Part shown: in pieces, positions 305 to 31,863 of the stretch | Position numbering within the stretch: position 1 is the stretch's first letter | Layout of the letters: the number at the start of each line of letters is the position of its first letter | NCBI GenBank assembly: GCA_030167145.1 | Contig: CP126532.1 | Location: forward strand, 450,001 to 482,000 | Length of the DNA stretch: 32,000 nt | Direction of reading: 5' to 3' | Origin: Ktedonobacterales bacterium | GTDB lineage: Bacteria; Chloroflexota; Ktedonobacteria; Ktedonobacterales; JADMIN01 | Notes under the pieces: generated by a model | Told to the model about the DNA's origin: nothing | Seen by the model: the letters and a program-made list of their open reading frames with translations, nothing else | Databases searched by the model: none | Made by a program: the position numbers and the translations under genes

Positions 305-3082
305 GTGGCACAAACCAAAGCCATGACCCTGGACGAAGCGGTCAAGAAGTCGCCGCGCAAGTGGGTCTACCTTTTCTCTGAAGGCAACGCTAAGATGCGC
401 GACCTGCTCGGCGGCAAAGGCGCGGGCGTCGCCGAGATGACCAACGCGGAGCTACCCGTCCCGCCCGGCTTCACCATCACCACCGAAGCCTGCAACGCCT
501 ATTACGACAGCGGCAAACAGTTCCCCACTGGCATGTGGGATCAGGCGCTCGCCGCGCTCCGTGTCGTCGAAGAGCAGACGGGCAAGAAGCTCGGCGATCC
601 AGCCAATCCGCTCCTCGTATCGGTTCGCTCCGGCGCGAAATTCTCCATGCCCGGCATGATGGATACCGTCCTTAACCTGGGCCTCAACGACGAGACAGTT
701 AAGGGTATCATCGCCGGCAGCGGCGACGAGCGCTTTGCCTACGACGCCTATCGTCGTTTCGTGCAGATGTTCTCCAAGATCGTGCTCGACGCGAAGGCCG
801 AGGCGTTCGAGAAGGTCATCGAGGAGTACAAGGAAAAGACCGGCGCGAAGACCGATGCTGACATCCCTGCCGACGCCCTGAAGCAGATGGTCGAGGACTT
901 CAAACAAATCGCCCGCGCATCCTCTGGCAAGCCTTTCCCCGAAGACCCCTACGATCAGTTGCGCCACGCTATCGAGGCCGTCTTCGCTTCGTGGAACAAC
1001 AAGCGTGCGATTGACTACCGCAACTTCAACAAGATTCCGCACGACCTCGGCACTGCCGTCAACGTCCAGACAATGGTCTTTGGCAACATGGGCAATGGCA
1101 GCGCCACTGGCGTCGCCTTCACCCGCAACCCATCCACCGGCGAGAAGCGCCTCTACGGAGACTATCTCGTGAACGCCCAGGGCGAAGACGTGGTGGCAGG
1201 CATTCGTAACACCTCTCCGATTGAGAAGCTCTCCGATGAGATGCCCGGCGTCGCCGAACAGTTCCAGCAGATCGCCCAGCGCCTTGAGAAGCATTACCGC
1301 GACGTGCAGGATCTCGAATTCACCGTCGAGAAAGGCCGTCTCTACATGCTTCAGACGCGGTCCGCCAAGCGCACCGCCGCCGCCGCCGTCAAGACCGCCG
1401 TAGACATGGTGCGCGAGAAGCTCATCACCGAGCAAGAGGCCGTCCAGCGCGTCGAGCCGGGGCAGGTGGTGCAGTTGCTGCTGCCGCGCTTCGACGACAA
1501 CGACATCAAGCGCGCCAAGGGCGCAGGACTGGAACTGGCAAAAGGCGTCAATGCCTCGCCAGGCGCCGCCGTCGGCAAAGTGATCTTCGACGCCGACCGC
1601 GCCGAGGCCGCTGGCAAAGTTGGTGAGCGTGTGATCCTCGTCCGCCAGGAGACCAGCCCCGACGACGTACATGGCATGCTTGCCGCGAAGGGCATCCTGA
1701 CGAGCCGTGGCGGCACGGGCAGCCATGCGGCGGTCGTCGCGCGTGGTCTGGGGCTGCCCGCCGTCGTCGGCTGCGAGGGCATCCGCGTAGACTACGAGCA
1801 GCGCACCTTCGAGGTTCGCGCCTCCGGCGAGATCATCCATGAGGGCGACGAAGTCTCGATTGACGGCACCACCGGCACCATCTACAATGGCGCGATCAAG
1901 ACCGTCGAGCCGAACTTCGAGGAAGAGCACGACCTGCGGACGTTGCTCGGCTGGGCCGACACCTTCCGCAAGCTGGGCGTCTGGGCGAATGCCGACTACC
2001 CGCGCGACGCGGAGCGCGCCGTCATCTTCGGCGGCGAGGGCATCGGCCTCTGCCGCACTGAGCACATGTTTATGGAGCAGGAGCGCCTGCCCATCGTGCA
2101 GGAGATGATTCTCGCGCCCACCGTCGCGGAACGCCAGAAGGCGCTCGATAAGCTGCTGCCCTTCCAGCGCGCGGATTTCGAAGGCATCTTCCGCTCCATG
2201 CGCGATCCCAAGACGGGCGTGGGCTACCCTGTCGTCATCCGCCTGATTGACCCACCGCTCCACGAATTCCTGCCGAGCTACGAAGAACTGCTGGTCGAGG
2301 TCACCCGGCTGGAAGACAAGGGCGACAACCCGAAGGAGCTTGAGAAGAAGCGTGCGCTGTTACAGGCCGTCGCAGGCATGCGCGAGATGAACCCAATGCT
2401 TGGCCTGCGCGGCTGCCGTCTGGGGCTGCTTTTCCCCGAGATCAACGTCATGCAGACGCGGGCGATTCTCGAAGCGGCGGCAAATGTGGCCAAAGACGGT
2501 ATCAAGCTTCAGCCGAAGATCATGATCCCGCTGGTCGGCCACGTGAACGAGCTACGTGAGGTGCGCCGCCAGCTTGAGGCCGTCGCCAGGGAGATCACCG
2601 CCGAGCTTGGCGGCCAGGTGGATTACAAGTTCGGCACGATGATTGAGCTTCCGCGCGCCGCCCTCACCGCCGGACAGATCGCCGAAGTCGCCGATTTCTT
2701 CAGCTTCGGCACTAACGATCTCACCCAGACCACGTTTGGCATGAGCCGCGACGACGCCGAGGCCAAGTTCCTGCTCAAATACGTCGAAGGACTGGAAGAA
2801 CCAGGGCTGGAGCAGCCGGTCAAGATCCTCAAGACCAACCCCTTCCAGACGCTGGACCGCGACGGTGTGGGCCGTCTGATTCAGATCGCCGTCAAAGAAG
2901 GCCGCGCGGCCAACGCCAAGTTGGAAGTCGGCATCTGCGGCGAGCATGGTGGCGACCCCGACAGCATCGCCTTCTGCAATGAAGTAGGGCTGGACTACGT
3001 GAGTTGCTCGCCGTTCCGCGTCCCCGTCGCACGCCTCGCCGCCGCCCAGGCCGCGCTGGCCAAGACCGAGCGCGATAAGTAA
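305..3082 (+). CDS. ppdK: Pyruvate, phosphate dikinase
   Basis: 925-aa ORF with a GTG start preceded by GAGGAGGAA. Carries the phosphohistidine motif TSRGGTGSHAAVVARGLGLP and the PEP-utilizer C-terminal motifs GLCRTEHMF and FFSFGTNDLTQ. Length and N-terminal ATP-grasp region are typical of PPDK. Confidence 0.95.
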   Translation: MAQTKAMTLDEAVKKSPRKWVYLFSEGNAKMRDLLGGKGAGVAEMTNAELPVPPGFTITTEACNAYYDSGKQFPTGMWDQALAALRVVEEQTGKKLGDPANPLLVSVRSGAKFSMPGMMDTVLNLGLNDETVKGIIAGSGDERFAYDAYRRFVQMFSKIVLDAKAEAFEKVIEEYKEKTGAKTDADIPADALKQMVEDFKQIARASSGKPFPEDPYDQLRHAIEAVFASWNNKRAIDYRNFNKIPHDLGTAVNVQTMVFGNMGNGSATGVAFTRNPSTGEKRLYGDYLVNAQGEDVVAGIRNTSPIEKLSDEMPGVAEQFQQIAQRLEKHYRDVQDLEFTVEKGRLYMLQTRSAKRTAAAAVKTAVDMVREKLITEQEAVQRVEPGQVVQLLLPRFDDNDIKRAKGAGLELAKGVNASPGAAVGKVIFDADRAEAAGKVGERVILVRQETSPDDVHGMLAAKGILTSRGGTGSHAAVVARGLGLPAVVGCEGIRVDYEQRTFEVRASGEIIHEGDEVSIDGTTGTIYNGAIKTVEPNFEEEHDLRTLLGWADTFRKLGVWANADYPRDAERAVIFGGEGIGLCRTEHMFMEQERLPIVQEMILAPTVAERQKALDKLLPFQRADFEGIFRSMRDPKTGVGYPVVIRLIDPPLHEFLPSYEELLVEVTRLEDKGDNPKELEKKRALLQAVAGMREMNPMLGLRGCRLGLLFPEINVMQTRAILEAAANVAKDGIKLQPKIMIPLVGHVNELREVRRQLEAVAREITAELGGQVDYKFGTMIELPRAALTAGQIAEVADFFSFGTNDLTQTTFGMSRDDAEAKFLLKYVEGLEEPGLEQPVKILKTNPFQTLDRDGVGRLIQIAVKEGRAANAKLEVGICGEHGGDPDSIAFCNEVGLDYVSCSPFRVPVARLAAAQAALAKTERDK

Positions 3083-3096
3083 ATCAACAACAACAC

Positions 3097-3135
3097 AAAC
3101 AGGGCGACATATCCATGTGGATTGTCGTCCTGTTT
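3097..3135. terminator. Hairpin between convergent ppdK and the 3242-4021 gene
   Basis: AAACAGGGCGACA, a 13-nt loop, then TGTCGTCCTGTTT form a 13-bp stem with one G:U pair. A-run and T-run flanks allow the hairpin to work on either strand. Confidence 0.6.
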
Positions 3136-3241
3136 GCATGAAGCCAGCGTACCATCACGCTGATGCGATAATGCGCATCCCTTGGCTATGTTGGCTTCCT
3201 GCGAAAATATCGGGCGAGCCGGCCAGAAGAAATCATAGCCA

Positions 3242-4021
3242 TCATGCGATGTTATATCGCTCTTTGACCTGCTGCTCCTTCTCACGCAGGCCCACGACAA
3301 GTGCGCGCGCTTGCGAGATGGCCGTGTCTAACTTGATCTGATTGGTGTTGGTAATCTCACCTATAGAGGCCTGCACATACTGCCCACCGCCAATGATCTC
3401 CTGGAATAGCCCCCGCAGGTCGTTCGCCAACCCCGCTCGCTCCCGCTCGGACATATGCACCACACTCGGAGCGGCGTTACCATTCGATACCGATGCTGAT
3501 GGTACTGTGGAATTCATTGTGGCTGCGCTCCCCGACACTTGATCAGCATCCACAACACGTTCGCCATGGTCAGCCCCTGGTTCAGGAAGCGCGTTCATTT
3601 TAGACTGACTGAGATCAGCCCTGATTGCCACAAGTTGCGGATTCGTATGGAGAAGCATATCGGCATACCGATCGAGCGCCTGGTCAAGCAGCGTAGCAAA
3701 GTTACTGACGGTGGCCAGCGCCATTGCTAACGGGAAAGGCTGGCGCGATTTCTTATCGGTCAGCAGCTTATCTTGCCGTGCGCTTTCCGCGATGATGGTT
3801 GCGAGGTTGTCGTGAAGACCGCGTGCAATGTTCTGTATCTGCACATCCGTATAACTACGGGCCGTATGCCCCCCACGAAGCAGTTCTGCGCTTGCTGCCG
3901 CTGCTACCGCCAGCAGCGTCAAGCCCGGTTTCATCACATTTTGCCTGGTTGCGTCGGCTATCTTATCGCGCCTGAAGCGTCCGAACAGACCTCCGCTCTT
4001 GTCTGACGACTTGTTGCTCAT
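3242..4021 (-). CDS. Hypothetical protein (259 aa), no recognisable motif
   Basis: ATG preceded by a very strong RBS (GAGGAGGAGGG). One hydrophobic segment (LTLLAVAAAASA), a Ser/Ala-rich low-complexity middle, and a helical C-terminus. Confidence 0.6.
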   Translation of the reverse strand: MSNKSSDKSGGLFGRFRRDKIADATRQNVMKPGLTLLAVAAAASAELLRGGHTARSYTDVQIQNIARGLHDNLATIIAESARQDKLLTDKKSRQPFPLAMALATVSNFATLLDQALDRYADMLLHTNPQLVAIRADLSQSKMNALPEPGADHGERVVDADQVSGSAATMNSTVPSASVSNGNAAPSVVHMSERERAGLANDLRGLFQEIIGGGQYVQASIGEITNTNQIKLDTAISQARALVVGLREKEQQVKERYNIA

Positions 4022-17708: not shown

Positions 17709-18365
17709 CTATCGCAGCCCTTCCGTTGCTTGCCCAAGCGAGCGATACACAGCAGTGACGATGCCATGGACTTGCCATTCGCGGGTCCAATCACGCCGTC
17801 GAATGTAGATGGGATCCATTGTAGGATTCGCTGGTTGCAAACGCACACGCTTCCGCTCGGATTCAGAATAAAATCGCTTGATAGTGGCGGCACCGAGATC
17901 GCCATTGCCTGTAAGCTGGACAGCAACAACGATGTCACCATTACGGATGTCTGCTTTAACAGGCCTGACCAGAACATAATCGCCATCAAAAATGCGCTCA
18001 TCAATCATCGAATCGCCGTGGACACGCAAAGCGAACTGCTCATTGGGGTCGCGCAGGTGAACGGCGACATCCAAACACATCTGCTCGCCCGGCTCAAACA
18101 ACGCCAGTGGTTCGCCTGCGGCAATTTCACCAAGTATTGGGATTCCAGGTTGGCGAAGAAGTCGAATGCCACGAGCCCTGTTCGGATCTCGTTCAATGAG
18201 GCCCTGCTCAACGAGCTTATCGAGATAGTAGACGACATTGCTTGGAGATTTGAGCCGCGCCGCCAAGCCAATCTCGCGAATGGTGGGTAATCTGCCATCG
18301 CGACGTGCGCACTCTTCGATGAAGTGGAGTATCGCTTCTTGCCGTAGGGCTGATCTCTGGTTCAT
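17709..18365 (-). CDS. lexA: LexA repressor
   Basis: N-terminal winged helix (LPTIREIGLAARLKSPSNVVYYLDKL), the Ala-Gly cleavage site (EIAAGEP), catalytic Ser (HGDSM) and Lys (TIKRF). Confidence 0.92.
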   Translation of the reverse strand: MNQRSALRQEAILHFIEECARRDGRLPTIREIGLAARLKSPSNVVYYLDKLVEQGLIERDPNRARGIRLLRQPGIPILGEIAAGEPLALFEPGEQMCLDVAVHLRDPNEQFALRVHGDSMIDERIFDGDYVLVRPVKADIRNGDIVVAVQLTGNGDLGAATIKRFYSESERKRVRLQPANPTMDPIYIRRRDWTREWQVHGIVTAVYRSLGQATEGLR

Positions 18366-18412
18366 AGATATAATCCTTAGTGCGAAAATCTCCGCTGAGA
18401 ATCACTTGTTCT

Positions 18413-18424
18413 GAACTAATGTTC
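18413..18424. promoter_or_regulatory. LexA operator (SOS / Cheo-type box) at the lexA promoter
   Basis: GAACTAATGTTC has the form GAAC-N4-GTTC and lies 2 nt downstream of the lexA -10. A degenerate neighbour, AGAAC-N5-ATTCT (minus-strand reading), follows immediately. Confidence 0.75.
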
Positions 18425-18426
18425 CA

Positions 18427-18455
18427 ATTATATACATAACTTGCCAGCGCGTCAA
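18427..18455 (-). promoter_or_regulatory. lexA promoter
   Basis: On the minus strand: TTGACG (18455-18450), 17 nt, then TATAAT (18432-18427). Confidence 0.6.
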
Positions 18456-18573
18456 TCTCATTGTCCAAATTTAGTGGTTTCCTAACAAGTAAGGCACTTG
18501 TCTCGCGTGCGAGCCTCGCTCACGAGATGACGGCCAATCCAGATGGTATGTCGCATGGAAGGCTGAGGCAAGT

Positions 18574-19269
18574 TCAGGGGAGATGCGCTTCACCAGTTTC
18601 GGGTAAGCGCGCTTGTACGGCTTCCCATACCTGCTCAGCTAAGCTGGCAGGTGGCAGGGTTGCGTCGAAGACAAGCCAGCGTGCTGGTTCTGTTGCAGCA
18701 AGAGCAAGATATGCCGCGCGCACACGCTCGTGGAAGGCGATGGACTCGGCATCTATTCGATTCCACTCGCCGCCCGCACTGCGCGCATGTTGCCTGCGGC
18801 GCTGCCCTTCTTCGACTGGAAGATCGAATAGCAGGGTGAGATCAGGCATAAGTCCTCCGGTTGCCAAGCGTTCCGCCACGGTAATGTCGTTCAATGCGAA
18901 ACCACGCCCCGCACCTTGATATACACGGGTTGCGTCAGTATAGCGGTCACAGATGACAACTTCGCCTGTTGCCAACCACTTGCGAATGCGCGCCACATGT
19001 TGCGCGCGGGCGGCGGAGAGCAATAGCACTTCGGTGGTCGGCAACATTGGCTCAATTGGCTCATCACCCGAAGCCAGCCCCACGCCACGGAGAGCCGTCA
19101 GACTTGCATCGGGATGAAGCAGCACTGCGCGGATAGCGCCAGCTAGTGGTGTGCCACCAGGCTCGCGAGTCTGGCGCACTATGTAGCGCGCCACACGAAA
19201 TCGCTCAGCCAGGAGGATGGACTGTGTTGTCTTGCCAGCGCCTTCGCCGCCTTCCAAGGTAATGAACAT
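18574..19269 (-). CDS. tmk: Thymidylate (dTMP) kinase
   Basis: Starts MFITLEGGEGAGKTT (P-loop) and has the DRY motif (ICDRYTDAT). The ATG at 19269 lies 16 nt after the thyX stop. The upstream extension in the track ORF is not needed. Confidence 0.88.
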   Translation of the reverse strand: MFITLEGGEGAGKTTQSILLAERFRVARYIVRQTREPGGTPLAGAIRAVLLHPDASLTALRGVGLASGDEPIEPMLPTTEVLLLSAARAQHVARIRKWLATGEVVICDRYTDATRVYQGAGRGFALNDITVAERLATGGLMPDLTLLFDLPVEEGQRRRQHARSAGGEWNRIDAESIAFHERVRAAYLALAATEPARWLVFDATLPPASLAEQVWEAVQARLPETGEAHLP

Positions 19270-19285
19270 GTGGGTTATCCTGGTG

Positions 19286-20071
19286 CTACACCTTATAATG
19301 TGTCGCGTGTACCCCTTCGGTGCCATCGTTGAGACGCACGATCTCAAAGTCATCGAACAGGTGAGGCGCTTCCCGTTGCATCAGGCGGCAAAGCTTGACC
19401 GCAAGTTTGCGAATCTCGGGTTCTGCTCCGTCAGTGCCGCGCAGAGTGATAATCCAGCGCAACGCACGTGCATTGGCGGAGAAAAGTAGCTTGGTCTCGG
19501 TCGCGTTTGGCAGCACACTTCGCGCGGCTTCGCGCGCCATCTTCATTCTTTGGGTGCGCGGCAGGTCAGGAAATTGCTGCTGAACACGACTGGCAAGTTT
19601 CTCGACAAGGCTTATATATGCCTGGTGAGAGGCTTCGACAGCGTGTAGCCAGATTGTATGCGTCTCTGGATCCCCCGCAATAACTGCAGGTTCGATGAAG
19701 TCTGCTGTGGACTCATCTACATAGCGCTGGCTCAACTGAGAGATGCCAGTGCCAGCTCTGTGCCGCACGAGCTCATGTGTCAGGCTGCGTGATACACCTG
19801 TAATCAGCAGATCCCAGACGGCGTGCTCAAGTACCGAGCCGTGGCCCTGATTGATGAGGTTTCCGACATAGTCTTTGTTAGTTTTGCGAAACTGCTTATC
19901 GCCGAACGAAAGATAACACACTCTACCAGCCAGCTCAACGACCAGTTCAGAGCCGATTTCGGAATCAGTCTGCCAAGATGTCTCGTGATCGGTGAGGAAG
20001 CGCTGAACTTCAGCGTCATTGATGCTTTGGCGGCCAACGATGTAGATCTCTGGCTCACTGAGAATACGCAT
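19286..20071 (-). CDS. thyX: Flavin-dependent thymidylate synthase
   Basis: ThyX signature RHRxxSxxxxSxR (LVRHRAGTGISQLSQRY). The ATG at 20071 (MRILSEPEIY) is preceded by GGAG. Confidence 0.88.
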   Translation of the reverse strand: MRILSEPEIYIVGRQSINDAEVQRFLTDHETSWQTDSEIGSELVVELAGRVCYLSFGDKQFRKTNKDYVGNLINQGHGSVLEHAVWDLLITGVSRSLTHELVRHRAGTGISQLSQRYVDESTADFIEPAVIAGDPETHTIWLHAVEASHQAYISLVEKLASRVQQQFPDLPRTQRMKMAREAARSVLPNATETKLLFSANARALRWIITLRGTDGAEPEIRKLAVKLCRLMQREAPHLFDDFEIVRLNDGTEGVHATHYKV

Positions 20072-22556: not shown

Positions 22557-22791
22557 CGTCGAGCCTCCTCGCCGCCATATTCTCGCGCTCGTAGCGCGCT
22601 CGCAAGTGACTTCTGAGCCTCATAGAGAGTGTAGCACCGGTCTACCTCAACATGCAGAATAGCTTGGCGCGCACATCACAAATGTGCGGAATGAGAAGGC
22701 TCACGACCAACATACCAACCACCCTTCCCAAAATGTGATACCATGCTATCCCGTGCGATAACACCGGATGATAGAGAGCAGGAGCGCAACT

Positions 22792-23382
22792 ATGGCGGAC
22801 GTGACATATCTCTCGCAGATCCCACTCTTCGAGGAACTTCGTGGCGAGCATATCATCGTTCGCCCTTACCGCGAAGTGGATGCAGTGGATCACTACGCCG
22901 CAATAGACGAGTCGCGCGAGCATTGCCGTCCCTGGCTGCCCTGGCCCGACTACTACCACTCCATCGAGGATTCACGTGACTACATCGCACGGTGCCGGGC
23001 ACGCTGGATCGTGCGAGAAGATTTGTCGGTGGGCATCTTCGACGTGGAAAATGGGCGGTTCCTTGGCGGAAGCGGCCTGCACCCGCGCAACTGGGACGCG
23101 CGTATCTTCGAGATCGGCTACTGGCTGCGCAGTTCAGCCGAAGGGCATGGCTACATGTCCGAAACCGTGAAACTCCTCACCGACTATGCTTTTGCTGATC
23201 TGCACGCGAACCGTGTGTACATTCGCTGTGACGCGCGCAACACGCGCAGCGCGGCGGTCGCTCAGCGGCTCGGCTTCGTGCGCGAGGCGCTGCTGCGAAA
23301 CGATGCACTCGCCAACGATGGCACAGTGCGCGATACGCTGGTCTTCTCCCTTACCCCTGATGACCCACGCTGGCCATCGTAA
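22792..23382 (+). CDS. GNAT N-acetyltransferase (RimJ/RimL-like)
   Basis: N-terminal L.G..I.vRPy...D and C-terminal N.RS.AVAQRLGF.REA patterns. The ATG at 22792 is preceded by GGAG. Confidence 0.8.
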   Translation: MADVTYLSQIPLFEELRGEHIIVRPYREVDAVDHYAAIDESREHCRPWLPWPDYYHSIEDSRDYIARCRARWIVREDLSVGIFDVENGRFLGGSGLHPRNWDARIFEIGYWLRSSAEGHGYMSETVKLLTDYAFADLHANRVYIRCDARNTRSAAVAQRLGFVREALLRNDALANDGTVRDTLVFSLTPDDPRWPS

Positions 23383-23394
23383 ATTCCAATCAAG

Positions 23395-23420
23395 GCTCCC
23401 CGCACGCGTGCGGGGAGCCG
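23395..23420. terminator. Perfect 26-nt GC-rich palindrome between convergent genes
   Basis: GGCTCCCCGCACGCGTGCGGGGAGCC. Confidence 0.6.
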
Positions 23421-26421: not shown

Positions 26422-27222
26422 TCAAATCGAGGGCGTCGCACCGCCATCCAGGATAACATCTTCACCAGTCATAGCTGGCAGCCTATCGGACGCGAGAAGC
26501 ACAGCCAGAGAGGCTATCTCATCCATCGTCACGAGGCGTCGTAGTGGAATGGCGCGCGCTTCTCTTCGCTCAATCTCTTCTACACTCACGCCCTCCGCCG
26601 CCGCCTGCAACTCGAATTTGCGCTGGAGCCATTCGGTCAGCGTCCATCCGGGGCTTATCGAGTTTATACGCACGTTGTTGCGCCCCAATGAACGCGAGAT
26701 GCCTCGCGTGAAATTCAAAAGTGCGGCATTCACCATACTCCCGACGATAAAATCCTCGGTTGGCGTGCGGGCTGCTGTGCCGATGATATTGATGATGCTG
26801 CCGCTCTTGCGCTCCATCATGTGGGGCGCTATCGCGCGCACCATCCGCACATAGCCAAAGGCTTTTACCTGCCAGATGTCTTGAAGATGTTCCTCGGACA
26901 TATCAAAAAAGCTGCCCGTATGTGCGCGACCAGCATTGTTGACTAGAATATCTACGTGGCCCAAACGTTCGATAGCTTGGGCAACCACACGCTCCACCTC
27001 GGCCCGTATCCCCAAATCCGCGACGATTGGATATACTGCTGGTCGTGGCGTCTGGCCAACCTGCGCTCCCAGGGTCCGTGTCATTGGATCGAGGCGCTCC
27101 AACGATCGCGCGACCAGCACCATTGACACGCCTTCTGTGTGCAGCGCGCGTGCAATCGCCGCTCCGATCCCCTGACTCGCCCCCGTGACAATCGCGGTCT
27201 TTCCCCGAAGTCCTAAATCCAT
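26422..27222 (-). CDS. Short-chain dehydrogenase/reductase (SDR)
   Basis: TGASQGIG cofactor motif and NNAG. AGGAG RBS. Confidence 0.88.
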   Translation of the reverse strand: MDLGLRGKTAIVTGASQGIGAAIARALHTEGVSMVLVARSLERLDPMTRTLGAQVGQTPRPAVYPIVADLGIRAEVERVVAQAIERLGHVDILVNNAGRAHTGSFFDMSEEHLQDIWQVKAFGYVRMVRAIAPHMMERKSGSIINIIGTAARTPTEDFIVGSMVNAALLNFTRGISRSLGRNNVRINSISPGWTLTEWLQRKFELQAAAEGVSVEEIERREARAIPLRRLVTMDEIASLAVLLASDRLPAMTGEDVILDGGATPSI

Positions 27223-27436
27223 GTAGAAGCTCCTGCGTCTCTAAATCTTCCGAATCCAGTCTATCACGTTCCCAGCGTGCGCTATTGCAAGGAAAAAGGT
27301 GGATCGTGAGAACTAGAGCAAAACGCAACTATGCCCTTGCACCAGTGTTCAGCCTCACTATAATGTACGCAATAGCATATTGTCACATCTCAACCGCAAC
27401 CGGCGCAAACGCTATCCGCGCGTAAGGAGCGACCAG

Positions 27437-28057
27437 GTGGATCTTTCAAGGCTTTTCGGACAAAAACAAACTAGTGCGCCAACTGAGAAGCGTCCAGATG
27501 GGCGCGACCGCTTGCCGCCAGGACAATACCACACGAAAAAGTGGCCAATTCTGAGCTATGAGAAGACGCCTCGCTTTGACCCGACTTCGTATCAGTTCAA
27601 AGTCTGGGGCGCAGTCGAAAATCCAATCCAGTTGACCTGGGACGAACTCCTTGCGCTGCCGCGCACCACGCTCACTACCGATTTCCATTGCGTTACCACA
27701 TGGAGCCGCTATGACAATGAGTGGGAAGGTGTCCATATCCGCGAGATTCTGGGCCGCGTCAAGCCTACCAGTGAGGCGCATTTCGTCACAGCACACTCTT
27801 TCACGGGGTACACCACCAACATGCCCCTTACTGCCCTCGACGATGACGACGTCATGATCGTCTTCAGGCATGATGGCCAGGATCTGGAACCAGACCATGG
27901 TGGTCCCGTGCGGCTGCTCGTCCCGAAGCTCTACGCCTACAAGAGCGCTAAGTGGCTCAATGGTCTGGAATTCATGGAGAACGATCGCCCTGGCTTCTGG
28001 GAGATTCGTGGCTATAGCAACAGCGCAGACCCATGGAACGAAGAGCGTTACTGGTAG
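27437..28057 (+). CDS. Sulfite-oxidase-like molybdopterin-dependent oxidoreductase (small bacterial type)
   Basis: FHCVTTWS (Mo-ligand Cys) and GGPVRLLVP..Y..KS.KW. I prefer GTG 27437 (AGGAG 7 nt upstream) over the TTG at 27380 used by the track. Confidence 0.8.
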   Translation: MDLSRLFGQKQTSAPTEKRPDGRDRLPPGQYHTKKWPILSYEKTPRFDPTSYQFKVWGAVENPIQLTWDELLALPRTTLTTDFHCVTTWSRYDNEWEGVHIREILGRVKPTSEAHFVTAHSFTGYTTNMPLTALDDDDVMIVFRHDGQDLEPDHGGPVRLLVPKLYAYKSAKWLNGLEFMENDRPGFWEIRGYSNSADPWNEERYW

Positions 28058-28150: not shown

Positions 28151-28891
28151 CTAGCTCGCGCGCCGTGCCCGCTGATATTCGCCGCTCAGTTGGGTAAGCA
28201 GTTCGCGTGCCTGCGCATAGCTCAGATCGCCCACTGGCTCCGGTTTACCGAGCGCTTCGCAGAGCTTGTGGATGCTTGTCACCTGCTTTTCCGTCGCGCG
28301 TGGCTCCTCGCCAACCAACTCGGTGGCTGGGGTCTCGCGCAGCACTCGCGCCTGCATTTCGCGATCGAGGCCTGTATTTGGCTTGATCACTCCGGTACCA
28401 GTGGGTTTGGGTAACTTTGCCCTCAGTTCACGCAGGACCGCATCCGGAATCCGCCCGTTCTTTTCAACTGATACCCAATTCATCGGTAGATTATACAGAT
28501 ACCGACCAATGCCCCAATGCACCGCCGCACGCTTGAAGCAATGTGATACGGCTCCTAGGGTCTGCTCGAAGTTGCTTGCCGATCCAGCATCAGACTTCGA
28601 CACACCCATTATGGTGAGGGTACCCTTCGCGACCATCACCTCGCCTTTATCAATCACTAGCGGTATCCAGTCAAAAGACCAGTTTCCCGCACCTACAACC
28701 TCGTCCAATCGATCCTGTACAGCACGGGCATCAATGTAGGCAACAACTTGTGCCCTGCCTGTCTGTTCGTTCGCCCTGCCCTGTACACGAAAATCCACTT
28801 CGGTTGGATCGAATGGCTCTTGGAGACGTTGGGAAATGTTGTTCCATTCGTCTCTGTTCAATATTTCCATCTTCATGTCCAAACCATTCAT
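28151..28891 (-). CDS. Rad52/Rad22-family (DdrA-like) ssDNA-binding/annealing protein with a C-terminal extension
   Basis: LQEPFDP..V.FR, AYIDARAVQDRLDEVVG.GNWSF, KGTLTI.GVSK.D.G and KRAAV.WGIGRYLYNLP match the Rad52-family N-terminal domain pattern. GGAGGT RBS. Confidence 0.75.
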   Translation of the reverse strand: MNGLDMKMEILNRDEWNNISQRLQEPFDPTEVDFRVQGRANEQTGRAQVVAYIDARAVQDRLDEVVGAGNWSFDWIPLVIDKGEVMVAKGTLTIMGVSKSDAGSASNFEQTLGAVSHCFKRAAVHWGIGRYLYNLPMNWVSVEKNGRIPDAVLRELRAKLPKPTGTGVIKPNTGLDREMQARVLRETPATELVGEEPRATEKQVTSIHKLCEALGKPEPVGDLSYAQARELLTQLSGEYQRARRAS

Positions 28892-28979
28892 CTACTACCT
28901 CCAATAGGTGACTGGACAGTGACAACATTCTAATCGTCGCAAGACCTTTCTTTCCGAAACAGCTAGAACCGGACGAAAT

Positions 28980-28997
28980 ATAGAACCTAGGTTCTAT
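28980..28997. promoter_or_regulatory. Predicted LexA operator: perfect 18-bp palindrome
   Basis: ATAGAACCTAGGTTCTAT has the core AGAAC-N4-GTTCT, the same core as the box at lexA in this window. It sits in the divergent intergenic region. Confidence 0.7.
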
Positions 28998-29024
28998 GAT
29001 CATACTGTAGTCTCGTCCGATCAA
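28996..29024 (-). promoter_or_regulatory. Candidate promoter of the Rad52-like gene, abutting the LexA box
   Basis: On the minus strand: TTGATC (29024-29019), 17 nt, then GATCAT (29001-28996), with the box immediately downstream. Confidence 0.4.
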
Positions 29025-29197
29025 GCTGATATCTGATACAAACTAATTTACTGAGTTTCCAACGAAATGAGGAAAAGAGACCCCCGAATCTCCTTTCGAG
29101 CGGAATAGGGCCTTAGAGCATCTTGATTTGATAAGGCCTCAGGTGCATATACTAGCTCTACAGCCGAGTAATACAGTGCTCAACTGGAGAAGATGCG

Positions 29198-30271
29198 ATG
29201 ACAAAGGTCGTACTCCGACGTGGTATAGGCGACAGCATTCTCATTGAATTCCCATATGACGCAGTACTAGTATCCAAGGTCAAGACATTGCCGGGAAGAA
29301 TTTGGCTTCCAGAACAGAGAGTATGGAGCGTTCCCAGTAACGAGAACCCTTTATCAAAGCTGCGGAATCTCTTCCAAGGGCATACCGTAGAAGTAGCAGC
29401 AGATCTAACCCCCGAAATAACGGAGATGATCAGACGAGATATTATCGACTATTTGATTCTGCTGCCTTCGCCATTTCATGGCCGACTCGAAATTACCCAG
29501 TTTCTCTCGCGAATCTGGGACCTTTCTGCCATGCCATCTACAGATGGACGTTTTCACAACGCGGAGGGGGACATATGGCAACACATGGTGAACAACCAGG
29601 ATTGGGATGAGGCCTATCTCCTCTACAAGTACATGGAAGTACTGCGCTGCGATACTGTCACATTTCTGAAGTTTCTTGAAGAGTGCGTGCATCCAATTGT
29701 GCGTCCCGATGAGGCGCAGAGTGCCAGCGTTGTGGCGGCACTCAATGATATGCTCGCGGCAGACGGATACCGTTTGGGAGTACAACAACTCATCTCCGGG
29801 AAGCCTGTCTACAAATGCTTCCTAATTCCTGATAACGCTCAAGAAACGGCGAGTGATGGACCATATGATGTAGTTCTCTCGTATGCAGGCGAAGAAGAAG
29901 AATACGTAACTCGAGTAGCTCAATTTCTACAGGTCCGGGGTATTCGTGTGTTCTTCGCACCCAATAAGGAGCACGAAATATGGGGAAAGGACTTGACTGA
30001 GTATTTGGATCAAATCTATCGCGGTGATGCCAAATTCTGCGTCATGTTCATTTCGCAGAATTACGCTGCAAAAGTTTGGCCAACCCATGAAAGGCGTAGC
30101 GCGCTTGCGAAGGCGGTAAGCGCAAAGGAAGAGTATTTACTCCCTGCGCGATTCGACGATACAGCGATCCCGGGATTATCGCCTTCCATTGCCTACATTG
30201 ACCTGCGCAAGAAGACGCCCGAAGAGCTAGGCGACATCATCCTCCGCAAACTAGGAAAAAGAAGTTACTAA
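29198..30271 (+). CDS. Three-module protein: HARP-like N-terminal domain, unknown helical domain, C-terminal TIR domain
   Basis: GGAGAAG RBS with a 5-nt spacer. TIR hallmarks run from about aa 222: YDVVLSYAGEEEE, IRVFF, FCVMFISQNYAAKVWPTHE (Glu298), LLPARFDD. The N-terminus SILIEFPYDAVLVSKVKTLPGRIWLPEQRVWSVP fits the HARP-type pattern. The gene is visibly more AT-rich than its neighbours. Confidence 0.8.
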   Translation: MTKVVLRRGIGDSILIEFPYDAVLVSKVKTLPGRIWLPEQRVWSVPSNENPLSKLRNLFQGHTVEVAADLTPEITEMIRRDIIDYLILLPSPFHGRLEITQFLSRIWDLSAMPSTDGRFHNAEGDIWQHMVNNQDWDEAYLLYKYMEVLRCDTVTFLKFLEECVHPIVRPDEAQSASVVAALNDMLAADGYRLGVQQLISGKPVYKCFLIPDNAQETASDGPYDVVLSYAGEEEEYVTRVAQFLQVRGIRVFFAPNKEHEIWGKDLTEYLDQIYRGDAKFCVMFISQNYAAKVWPTHERRSALAKAVSAKEEYLLPARFDDTAIPGLSPSIAYIDLRKKTPEELGDIILRKLGKRSY

Positions 30272-30316
30272 GGCATCTCCTCTCATTCGTGTGGTTTTCG
30301 CCGCCAGCTCGTATGA

Positions 30317-30345
30317 TTGACAGCAGCGGGCAGGAATGCTAGCAT
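30317..30345 (+). promoter_or_regulatory. Promoter upstream of the E2 gene
   Basis: TTGACA, 17 nt, then TAGCAT. This would give a leader of about 200 nt. Confidence 0.55.
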
Positions 30346-30555
30346 AGTAAGGTGCGCGCAGTATCAGAAGAACATCGTCGAGGTCATGTTGTCTCATCTT
30401 ACGTGAGATCAGTTCTCACTGCGCGATTGCATCTACATAACCAGATGTCAACCTTTCTCTGCCGTGGCGTTACCCAACACACAATGACGTGTGTGGCCGC
30501 CAGAGCGCTGGCCTACCGCGCCAGCACAACGCAGTGCAACAAGAGGAGCGCATGT

Positions 30556-31863
30556 ATGGCGACCAAGATCACTATGCCCCAACTGGGCGAGTCGGTCAGT
30601 GAAGGCACGATTGGACGGTGGCTGAAAAACGAAGGCGACACGGTCAAGAAAGATGAGTCACTCGTCGAAATCATCACGGACAAAGTGACCGCTGAATTAC
30701 CCTCACCCGTCTCAGGACGCCTCGCGAAGATCCTGGTCAAAGAAGATGAGACGGTGAAAGTTGGCGCTGATATTGCCGAGATCGAAGAGCAAGCCAGTTC
30801 CGGTGGCACGCCCATATCCTCAGCGTCTTCCACATCTTCTGCCGGTACGTCTGCTGCCTCCGTTTCCGGTACCTCGGCGATGACAGCGACAGCAGTCACC
30901 AGTAATGCCCCACAGAGCAACGGCGCCAGCGCTGCGCGCGCTACCGCTGTTCAAGAGAAAGTCTCTCCGTTGGCACGGCGTCTCGCCCAGGAGCACAACG
31001 TTGACCTGAACGAGATTGTCGGCACAGGTGAAAATGGCCGCGTTCGCAAAGAAGACATCCTTGCGTATGTCGCCCAGCGCCAGACCATGCCGCACTCCAC
31101 CGTCACGGCGCCACCACTGGCGACACCGCCCATATCACCTGCTCCGCCAATCGCGGCGGTCGCTGGCGACCAACTGATCACACCTACGCCCGCACGCCGC
31201 GCCATCGCCGAACATATGGTCCGCAGCAAGCATACTTCCCCGCACGCCATTACGGTGTTCGAGGTGGATATGACAAATCTGTCACGCTGGCTGGACCGGA
31301 ACAAGGACGAGTTCAAGCGTCGCGAGGGTGTCGGCATTGGCTATCAAACCTTTGCCATCAAGGCCGCCGTTGAGGCGCTGAAAGAGCATCAGTATCTCAA
31401 TTCATCGTGGACGGAAGATGGTAAGATTTTGCTTCGCAAGCAAATCAACATCGGCGTCTCCATCGCCCTCGAAAACAATCTGGTGGTCCCAGTGATCCGC
31501 AACGCCGATACGCTCAGTGTCGCGGGCATCGCCCGCGCAGTCGCTGATCTTGTCAGCCGTGCCCGAAGCAATAAGCTCATGCCCACCGATCTCCAGGGCG
31601 CAACGTTCACTGTGAATAATCCTGGGGTGTTTGGTACGCTCATTTCAATGGCGATTATCAATCAGCCCAACGCCGCGATCCTCACTATGGATAGTGTCGT
31701 GAAGCGTCCCGTTATAGTGGACGATGCCATTGCCATCCGCCAGATGATGTATATGTCCCTCTCCTTCGATCATCGCATCCTGGATGGTCTCTCAGCCGCT
31801 CAATTCATGAGCGCCGTGAAGCGTCGCATCGAATCCTGGGAACCTGACGCCGACATCTATTAG
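30556..31863 (+). CDS. 2-oxoacid dehydrogenase E2 component (dihydrolipoamide acyltransferase)
   Basis: The ATG at 30556 follows AAGAGGAG. Has a lipoyl domain (ITDKV with the lipoyl-Lys), an Ala/Ser/Thr linker, an E3-binding domain (SPLARRLAQEHNVDLNEIVGTGENGRVRKEDI) and the catalytic motif SLSFDHRILDG. Substrate class is not assignable. Confidence 0.9.
   Translation: MATKITMPQLGESVSEGTIGRWLKNEGDTVKKDESLVEIITDKVTAELPSPVSGRLAKILVKEDETVKVGADIAEIEEQASSGGTPISSASSTSSAGTSAASVSGTSAMTATAVTSNAPQSNGASAARATAVQEKVSPLARRLAQEHNVDLNEIVGTGENGRVRKEDILAYVAQRQTMPHSTVTAPPLATPPISPAPPIAAVAGDQLITPTPARRAIAEHMVRSKHTSPHAITVFEVDMTNLSRWLDRNKDEFKRREGVGIGYQTFAIKAAVEALKEHQYLNSSWTEDGKILLRKQINIGVSIALENNLVVPVIRNADTLSVAGIARAVADLVSRARSNKLMPTDLQGATFTVNNPGVFGTLISMAIINQPNAAILTMDSVVKRPVIVDDAIAIRQMMYMSLSFDHRILDGLSAAQFMSAVKRRIESWEPDADIY

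Follow-up and report, generated by a model that had tools for sequence, protein, structure and literature searches.

A predicted LexA operator at the promoter of a Rad52-family gene in a Ktedonobacterales genome

The window analyzed here is the whole of a 32,000-nucleotide (nt) stretch of contig CP126532.1 (positions 450,001 to 482,000 of the forward strand) from a Ktedonobacterales bacterium, a member of the Ktedonobacteria, which are soil-dwelling, actinomycete-like Chloroflexota with large genomes. In this window a gene for a Rad52-family protein and a gene for a protein with a TIR domain diverge from a 306-nt intergenic region, and within this region lies a perfect palindrome of 18 base pairs (bp). 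We consider it likely, and hold this with good confidence, that the palindrome is an operator for the SOS repressor LexA, of the GAAC-N4-GTTC (Cheo-box) type, situated at the -10/+1 region of a Rad52 promoter that we refer to as P1. The features on which this reading turns are listed here by window coordinates; the gene identities given earlier in a preliminary description of this DNA (Rad52-like, TIR and LexA) are all confirmed by Pfam.

28980-28997, both strands: predicted LexA (SOS) operator, ATAGAACCTAGGTTCTAT, a perfect 18-bp palindrome with the 14-bp core AGAAC-CTAG-GTTCT at 28982-28995
28151-28891, minus strand: gene for a Rad52-family single-strand annealing protein of 246 amino acids (Pfam Rad52_Rad22)
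28947-28972, minus strand: second conserved leader element, CCG-18 nt-AAGAA(A); the window copy, TCGTCC-18-AAGAAA, is degenerate
28996-29001, minus strand: -10-like hexamer GATCAT of P1, abutting the operator core and overlapping the outer 2 bp of the palindrome
29019-29024, minus strand: -35-like hexamer TTGATC of P1, 17 nt from the -10
29198-30271, plus strand: gene for a HARP-like, AbiJ_NTD3 and TIR protein of 357 amino acids (Pfam AbiJ_NTD3 and TIR_2, and PADLOC matches)
17709-18365, minus strand: lexA, the presumed repressor gene, 218 amino acids (Pfam LexA_DNA_bind and Peptidase_S24)
18427-18455, minus strand: lexA promoter TTGACG-17-TATAAT (TTGACG at 18455-18450, TATAAT at 18432-18427), with the operator 2 nt downstream
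18400-18424, read on the minus strand: lexA tandem operators, GAACATTAGTTC at 18413-18424 (perfect) and GAACAAGTGATT at 18400-18411 (two mismatches)

The palindrome and the motif at lexA

The perfect palindrome reported earlier at 28980-28997 is borne out by a rereading of the sequence; its symmetry stops at 18 bp, with the T at 28979 and the G at 28998 unpaired. Perfect palindromes of this length number two in the window, compared to 0.17 per mononucleotide shuffle. The inner motif GAACNNNNGTTC also occurs twice when the 32 kb are searched on both strands (18413-18424 and 28983-28994), so that the earlier claim of only two full GAAC-N4-GTTC sites holds for the entire window; 0.25 copies are expected from dinucleotide-preserving shuffles, one in 100 of which yields two or more. 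The ten-base form AGAAC-N4-GTTCT has a single mismatch-free copy, and when up to two mismatches are allowed the window contains eight copies against 8.9 expected, which is chance level. The assignment of the core to the Cheo-box type is also upheld, as its GAAC-N4-GTTC arms match the Gram-positive LexA consensus CGAACN4GTTCG, as quoted in PMC3091678. We note that the tetranucleotide CTAG is scarce in the window (47 observed, about 119 expected from base composition), so that a CTAG at the center of the palindrome stands out in this genome.

The presumed repressor is encoded in the same window. It passes the NCBIfam lexA equivalog TIGR00498 with 153.7 bits against a cutoff of 111, and its alignment to solved LexA structures spans the full length and retains the Ser/Lys dyad (the serine of GDSM and the lysine of KRF) and the AAGEP (Ala-Gly) site of cleavage; by these features it is a canonical self-cleaving LexA, composed of a winged helix-turn-helix and an S24 domain. 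Autoregulation of lexA through a motif located just 3' of the -10 hexamer is the classical route to the LexA box of a clade, and the lexA coding strand reads TTGACG-17-TATAAT-TG-GAACATTAGTTC, with the box directly downstream of the promoter as the preliminary description had stated. Among the compared contigs, which are designated by handles beginning with L, L017 and L018 encode LexA proteins 93% identical to that of the window and read TTGACG-17-TATAAT-tg-GAACATTAGTTT-g-GAACAAGAGTTC, a box with one mismatch followed by a perfect box; L014, whose LexA is 53% identical, reads TATACT-tca-GAACATAAGTTC at 41 nt 5' of the start. Sharing of this motif, 3' of the lexA -10, between the window and three relatives is a hallmark of LexA autoregulation. 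The lexA promoter of L016 has only a degenerate version of the motif, and no box is present in L011, which came from a metagenome scan with the LexA protein that returned only distant relatives (33-54% identity). The nearest homologues of both LexA and the Rad52-like protein carry the source labels Ktedonobacterales or Ktedonobacteraceae.

The tandem lexA operators are separated by 1 bp in the window (18400-18424) as in L017 (1439-1463) and L018 (1630-1654), and the order of the perfect and imperfect boxes is swapped between the window and these two close relatives, as if at least one perfect box were required. A plus-strand open reading frame of 152 codons lies opposite lexA at 18461-18919; it has no family match and overlaps the thymidylate kinase gene (18574-19353, minus strand), and in relatives this gene, tmk, precedes lexA on the same strand. 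On these grounds the reading frame is probably spurious, and lexA would have no divergent SOS partner.

When a matrix is built exclusively from sites in other genomes, the positions at 28981 (15.5-16.9 bits) and 18411 (13.2-17.8 bits) are the two best in the window, and the degenerate second lexA box is next in rank; with the Rad52-trained or the combined matrix, unrelated sites reach at most 10.4-10.8 bits. With a matrix of three lexA sites alone, 28981 ranks third and an unrelated site at 31208 scores 13.8 bits. The proposal that the palindrome is a LexA operator thus draws support from the lexA promoters of relatives, from this independent matrix, and from the boxes upstream of the Rad52 orthologues to which we now turn.

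The Rad52-family gene, its promoters and its orthologues

The product of the minus-strand gene matches Rad52_Rad22 (PF04098) with an E value of 5.8e-13 and 49.5 bits against a cutoff of 20.3, and matches an Erf-like annealing protein family (PHROG 1097) with an E value of 9e-33. Its AlphaFold model has a mean pLDDT of 81, and the top 17 PDB matches in a Foldseek search of this model are to human RAD52 and yeast Mgm101 (E 1e-6, probability 1.0), followed by Sak of phage 80alpha. Judged by the modeled structure, the regulated gene product is a true Rad52-fold protein, and annealing activity is predicted. Its C-terminus consists of a disordered linker (residues 166-194) and then a conserved two-helix domain, and a GGAGG lies ahead of its ATG. 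A homologue with 55% identity is located in a phage-like row of genes in L020 and, unlike the window gene, is without a box; it indicates that the family moves between phages and chromosomes, the copy in the window being chromosomal and syntenic.

A homologue-alignment scan of a genome collection, together with individual homologue look-ups, provided 15 distinct Ktedonobacteria-type contigs, the window among them, with DNA upstream of the Rad52 gene. The orthologues share 54-75% protein identity with the window protein and mostly lie between the same neighboring genes, molybdopterin oxidoreductase and a divergent E2, and a GAAC-N4-GTTC-like box is found 70-200 nt upstream of the gene, nearly always beside a -10-like hexamer. 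Six of the boxes are perfect (the window, L001, L002, L006, L007 and L023), six have one mismatch (L003, L004, L008, L019, L022 and L028), and three are degenerate or relocated. The sites, all read on the Rad52 strand, are as follows.

L001: TATAAT-AGAACAGATGTTCA, perfect
L002: GATATG-GAACATGTGTTCC, perfect
L003: CATAT-AGAACACATGTACT, one mismatch
L004: TATTATGT-AGAACAAGTGATCT, one mismatch
L005: TAATAAT-AGAACATAATTCT, one-base deletion
L006: TAGAATA-AGAACAAATGTTCT, perfect
L007: TATACT-AGAACAAAAGTTCT, perfect
L008 (the same as L021) and L022: TATAAT-AGAACATAAATTCT, one mismatch
L019: three consecutive boxes, one mismatch each
L023: TATAATA-CGAACGCATGTTCT, perfect
L024: TAATAT-AGAACAAAAGTCTG, two mismatches
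L025 (the same as L026): AGAACAGTAATTCG, no upstream box; the box sits on the downstream element
L028: TAAAAT-AGAACATGGATTCT, one mismatch

For the first 12 loci, a site with no more than one mismatch lies within 250 nt in 11 (binomial p about 9e-11), and six are perfect (p about 3e-8). The background for these values is the empirical site frequency over 165 kb of compared sequence, a conservative rate because true sites are counted in it. Alignment of the upstream regions shows conservation of the -10/box block and of two short leader blocks, the rest having diverged, and the boxes of this clade share a flank preference of TAGAAC...GTTCTA.

The operator lies 92 nt from the ATG of the Rad52-like gene (at 28891), and the minus-strand promoter geometry described earlier as the same as that at lexA is present, with TTGATC-17-GATCAT abutting the box; what does not carry over is the strength of the hexamers, which match the standard at just 8 of 12 positions. 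At the homologous -10 position the relatives have TATAAT, TATACT, TAGAAT, TATTAT or TAAAAT, and 12 of 14 loci have a promoter-like pair (at least 8/12 matches, with the -35 at 16-18 nt) whose end is only a few bases from the box. It is accordingly positional conservation, and not the hexamers of the window themselves, that makes P1 a credible candidate promoter. Two weak, overlapping terminator-like hairpins with T-runs are present on the minus strand at 29069-29100, just upstream of the Rad52 promoter and outside the palindrome. There is no minus-strand gene there to terminate, and the hairpins may shield the promoter against antisense transcription, or they may have been left behind by an inserted cassette.

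The leader blocks form a second conserved element located between the box and the Rad52 start in L001-L008, L019, L022-L025 and L028. In relatives it has the form (A/T)TGACC/ATAACC-18 nt-(A/G)AGAAT, as in ATGACC-18-GAGAAT of L007 and ATAACC-17-AAGAAT of L002, and the CC(G) and AGAA columns of the alignment are invariant; in the window copy the final T is lost (AAGAAA compared to AGAAT). An RNA element was considered and ruled out, as RNAalifold predicts no pairs for nine leaders and an Rfam search over 28700-29300 gave nothing meaningful, with only miRNA models at E values of 0.65-0.93; with neither a consensus structure nor a family, the conserved blocks are read as DNA signals. The element keeps a fixed internal spacing but lies at varying distances from the box (10-55 nt) and from the ATG (40-130 nt). 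This combination, together with the lack of RNA structure, points to a probable second promoter, P2, which another sigma factor might recognize, or else to a second protein site. The pattern ACCG-N15-18-AGAAT has one further copy in the window, attributable to chance, and is not a common promoter form here. In L002, L003, L019 and L025 the AGAAT block also serves as the left arm of a LexA box that has one mismatch (GAATGTCCGTTC, GAATATGCGTTC, GAATGAGTGTTC and GAACAGTAATTC, respectively), and LexA may there control P1 and P2 alike; an active P2 in the window would not be subject to it.

Several considerations weigh against a LexA operator acting at P1. With 8/12 hexamers, P1 falls below the 9/12 threshold of a standard promoter scan, which calls nothing in 28700-29400. 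The 4-bp spacer CTAG is atypical, since the spacers of the relatives' sites all start with A, and affinity could consequently fall below what the perfect arms suggest. The binomial p-values given above overstate independence because the loci are related by descent, and they are upper bounds on significance. Finally, a P2-like element downstream of the operator could provide LexA-independent expression and weaken the regulatory effect.

The identity of the motif, its co-occurrence with a canonical LexA whose own gene bears the same motif, its positional conservation and the fold of the protein are the observations to be set beside these points. From them we infer that a cellular Rad52-family protein is a member of the SOS response, with LexA binding, repression, induction by damage and the transcription start all predicted from the sequence. 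In undamaged cells a LexA dimer would occupy the palindrome, which spans P1 from its -10 to about position +8, and would exclude RNA polymerase. Upon DNA damage, RecA filaments would trigger LexA self-cleavage, the operator would clear, and the Rad52-like protein would be produced, with a presumed role in protecting ends or annealing strands as double-strand breaks are repaired. Much of the class Ktedonobacteria would have inherited this arrangement of operator and Rad52 gene from a common ancestor, and the divergent HARP-AbiJ-TIR gene would be a later occupant of the neighboring slot that uses its own promoter.

In L019 (3998-6834), a more distant relative, the Rad52 gene with its LexA box stands ahead of a same-strand gene for a DnaE-type polymerase (PHP, DNA_pol3_alpha); this pair may be a damage-inducible operon.

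The divergent TIR gene and competing explanations

The second gene flanking the palindrome lies in a segment whose gene content varies among relatives, and it is here that the question of which gene the operator serves is best addressed. The additional features of this region of the window are listed below.

26422-27222: SDR gene, part of the conserved order SDR, molybdopterin oxidoreductase and Rad52, divergent from E2
27380-28057, plus strand: molybdopterin oxidoreductase gene, a synteny anchor; the same neighbor is present in L005, L021, L022 and L024
29123-29153, plus strand: TIR-proximal promoter-like site TTGATT-19 nt-TATACT, about 45 nt 5' of the ATG, with no GAAC box
30318-30346, plus strand: E2 promoter TTGACA-17-TAGCAT
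30556-31863, plus strand: E2 (2-oxoacid dehydrogenase acyltransferase) gene, 435 amino acids, a synteny anchor

The order SDR, molybdopterin oxidoreductase and Rad52, divergent from E2, is kept in L005, L008, L019 and L021-L023. The long reading frame called for E2 (503 amino acids, from a GTG at 30352) is over-extended, as relatives and a GGAG-spaced ATG put the start at 30556. The slot between Rad52 and E2 (28892-30555 in the window) is empty in most relatives and holds the HARP-AbiJ-TIR gene in five contigs. Homologues of the TIR protein (P0242-P0248, 48-56% identity) are encoded head-to-head with Rad52 in L024, L025/L026 and L028 and beside E2 in L027. A one-off insertion of the TIR gene in this genome, which L005, L008, L019 and L021-L023 had suggested, is withdrawn given these further occurrences. 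The G+C content of the gene is 0.46-0.50, against 0.57 for the window. L005, a close relative of the TIR-bearing L028 by its Rad52 N-terminus, has a different defense-type gene in the slot (2822-3511; Hypoth_Ymh, PADLOC PD-Lambda-3_B at E 1e-66, HEPN-type). Close relatives having different occupants, the slot is variable; by its gene content the Rad52/E2 space behaves as a small variable defense slot, with the TIR gene an occupant in a sub-lineage.

The explanation that competes best with a Rad52-specific operator, although we regard it as unlikely, is that LexA represses both divergent genes from a shared operator, the HARP-AbiJ-TIR gene thus also belonging to the SOS response by way of a distal promoter containing TATGAT. 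The palindrome is symmetric and lies in a divergent intergenic region, it is flanked directly on the plus strand by a -10-like TATGAT (28995-29000), and all five contigs that have the TIR gene (the window, L024, L025/L026, L027 and L028) place it either head-to-head with Rad52 or in the slot between Rad52 and E2, with intergenic distances of about 255-310 nt. The plus-strand hexamer is indeed present as described earlier, 198 nt 5' of the TIR ATG (29198), but it has no acceptable -35 and the scan calls no promoter there. Each TIR gene, moreover, has its own box-free promoter-like pair 40-60 nt from its start. These pairs are TTGATA-18-TAAAAT in L024, TTGCGG-18-TATACT in L025 and TTGACA-17-TAGCCT in L028, and the one in the window is passed over by the scanner because of its 19-nt spacer. 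In the window, L024, L025 and L028 no GAAC box lies at the TIR-proximal promoter-like site, the box being 120-220 nt away, and L025 has a single box, which covers the element next to Rad52 at 223 nt from the start of the TIR gene. At least nine loci that lack a TIR gene conserve the box just as well; in most of the loci that keep the SDR-to-E2 gene order Rad52 and E2 are directly divergent and the box is nonetheless present, and the slot gene is a different one in L005. The box therefore follows Rad52. Of the earlier suggestion that one or both divergent genes belong to the SOS regulon, the Rad52 half stands, as the position of the box tracks that gene, while the TIR half probably does not, given its own box-free promoter and the variable slot; the operator would serve the Rad52 gene, and the TIR gene is probably not under it.

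The TIR protein nevertheless has a domain composition of its own interest. It is 357 amino acids long, compared to 281 for the database copy (P0241), and its first 72 or so residues (29198-29416) are a conserved HARP-like domain. This N-terminal extension is conserved in P0242-P0248; five of seven N-terminal segments match Pfam HARP, the strongest of them with E 4.6e-6, and a profile match to the HARP structure of SMARCAL1 (4o66) has E 0.01. The domain is confined to the Ktedonobacteria-type homologues, the homologues of about 285 amino acids from other phyla and archaea being without it. In SMARCAL1 this domain type binds fork or junction DNA. The TIR gene would thus join a domain of this type to AbiJ_NTD3-TIR, and it lies beside a gene for an annealing protein. 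One could speculate that Rad52 is a core, vertically inherited SOS gene of the Ktedonobacteria with two-promoter control, that HARP-TIR became fixed head-to-head with it in one sub-lineage, and that the pair forms an immune or suicide switch that senses DNA damage or recombination intermediates and shares the LexA-controlled region. We give this proposal little credence; if true, the Rad52/HARP-TIR module would link the SOS response directly to TIR/NADase signaling.

Control of Rad52 by a different dimeric regulator, either a clade-specific Rad52 repressor or a paralogous S24/HTH protein, with the likeness to a LexA box coincidental or derived from a related protein, appears very improbable. 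The CTAG spacer, which is unlike that of every relative's site, would accord with it, as would the precedent of ddrA in Deinococcus, a Rad52-family damage gene that is under the non-LexA RDRM system (PMC1978522). Against it, however, the same motif occupies the same place relative to the -10 in the lexA promoters of the window and three relatives, a matrix made from lexA sites only still ranks the palindrome third in the window, and its arms are those of the Gram-positive consensus (PMC3091678). It is scarcely credible that the palindrome arose by chance or has no regulatory role, being for instance a hairpin or a restriction-type palindrome: CCTAGG is often met as a restriction site, RNA could fold here into a 7-bp stem and a 4-nt loop, and one shuffle in 100 does yield two GAACN4GTTC sites, but it is the arms and not CCTAGG that are conserved across the 15 contigs amid diverged flanks, and neither an RNA family nor a consensus structure is found. 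A terminator at this position was ruled out, as such a role makes no sense between divergent genes.

Related systems and further observations

LexA regulons have been worked out in many phyla. The best-known counterpart of the LexA motif described here is the Cheo box of Bacillus subtilis LexA (DinR), found at recA, lexA, dinB and uvrB, among others, which has the same GAAC-N4-GTTC arms, lies over or just after the -10, and includes an autoregulated lexA with tandem boxes. Bacillus subtilis belongs to another phylum, and its flanks are CGAAC...GTTCG rather than the TAGAAC...GTTCTA seen here; to our knowledge, a Rad52-family protein is not part of its SOS regulon. Closer by descent is Dehalococcoides ethenogenes, also of the Chloroflexota but of a different class, whose LexA is reported to bind a Gram-positive-type box, a precedent already named in the preliminary description; the targets studied there were reportedly lexA and recA-type genes, with no Rad52-like gene among them. 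The use of GAAC-N4-GTTC by a LexA of the Chloroflexota is unsurprising, and what is new is the target gene, the depth of its conservation, the dual-promoter layout and the HARP-TIR neighbor. Within a literature search of incomplete coverage, we found nothing that links LexA to a Rad52-family gene or that describes the SOS regulon of the Ktedonobacteria.

The closest functional analogue of the arrangement is DdrA (DR0423) of Deinococcus radiodurans, likewise a chromosomal, non-phage member of the Rad52 family, which is induced by DNA damage, radiation included, aids genome restitution, and binds and protects 3' single-stranded DNA ends (PMC515370). Its promoter has two tandem palindromic operator sites; it is controlled through the 17-bp RDRM motif, and LexA is explicitly not its regulator (PMC1978522), in contrast to the LexA box here. 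The two are likened by family and by damage induction, which for the window gene is predicted. The Sak proteins of lactococcal phage ul36 and staphylococcal phage 80alpha have the same fold as the window protein (PDB 8pq8, PHROG 1097). The window gene differs from these phage Rad52-type genes in its chromosomal setting, where synteny is conserved and the surroundings hold no phage genes, and in the conserved two-helix domain at the C-terminus of its product.

If the operator functions as predicted, a eukaryote-type strand-annealing or end-protection protein would join a bacterial SOS regulon, and its wiring would be convergent with that of Deinococcus DdrA, damage induction being achieved through a different regulator. 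The 14-16 bp motif TAGAAC-N4-GTTCTA could then be used to define the SOS regulon across the Ktedonobacteria. The HARP-AbiJ-TIR gene and the variable defense slot constitute a separate lead.

The second perfect 18-bp palindrome in the window, at about 23398, is GC-rich and resembles a terminator hairpin. It is part of GGCTCCCCGCACGCGTGCGGGGAGCC, a GC-rich palindrome at about 23394-23419, just 3' of a GNAT acetyltransferase gene (22768-23382), and is probably an ordinary intrinsic or bidirectional terminator.

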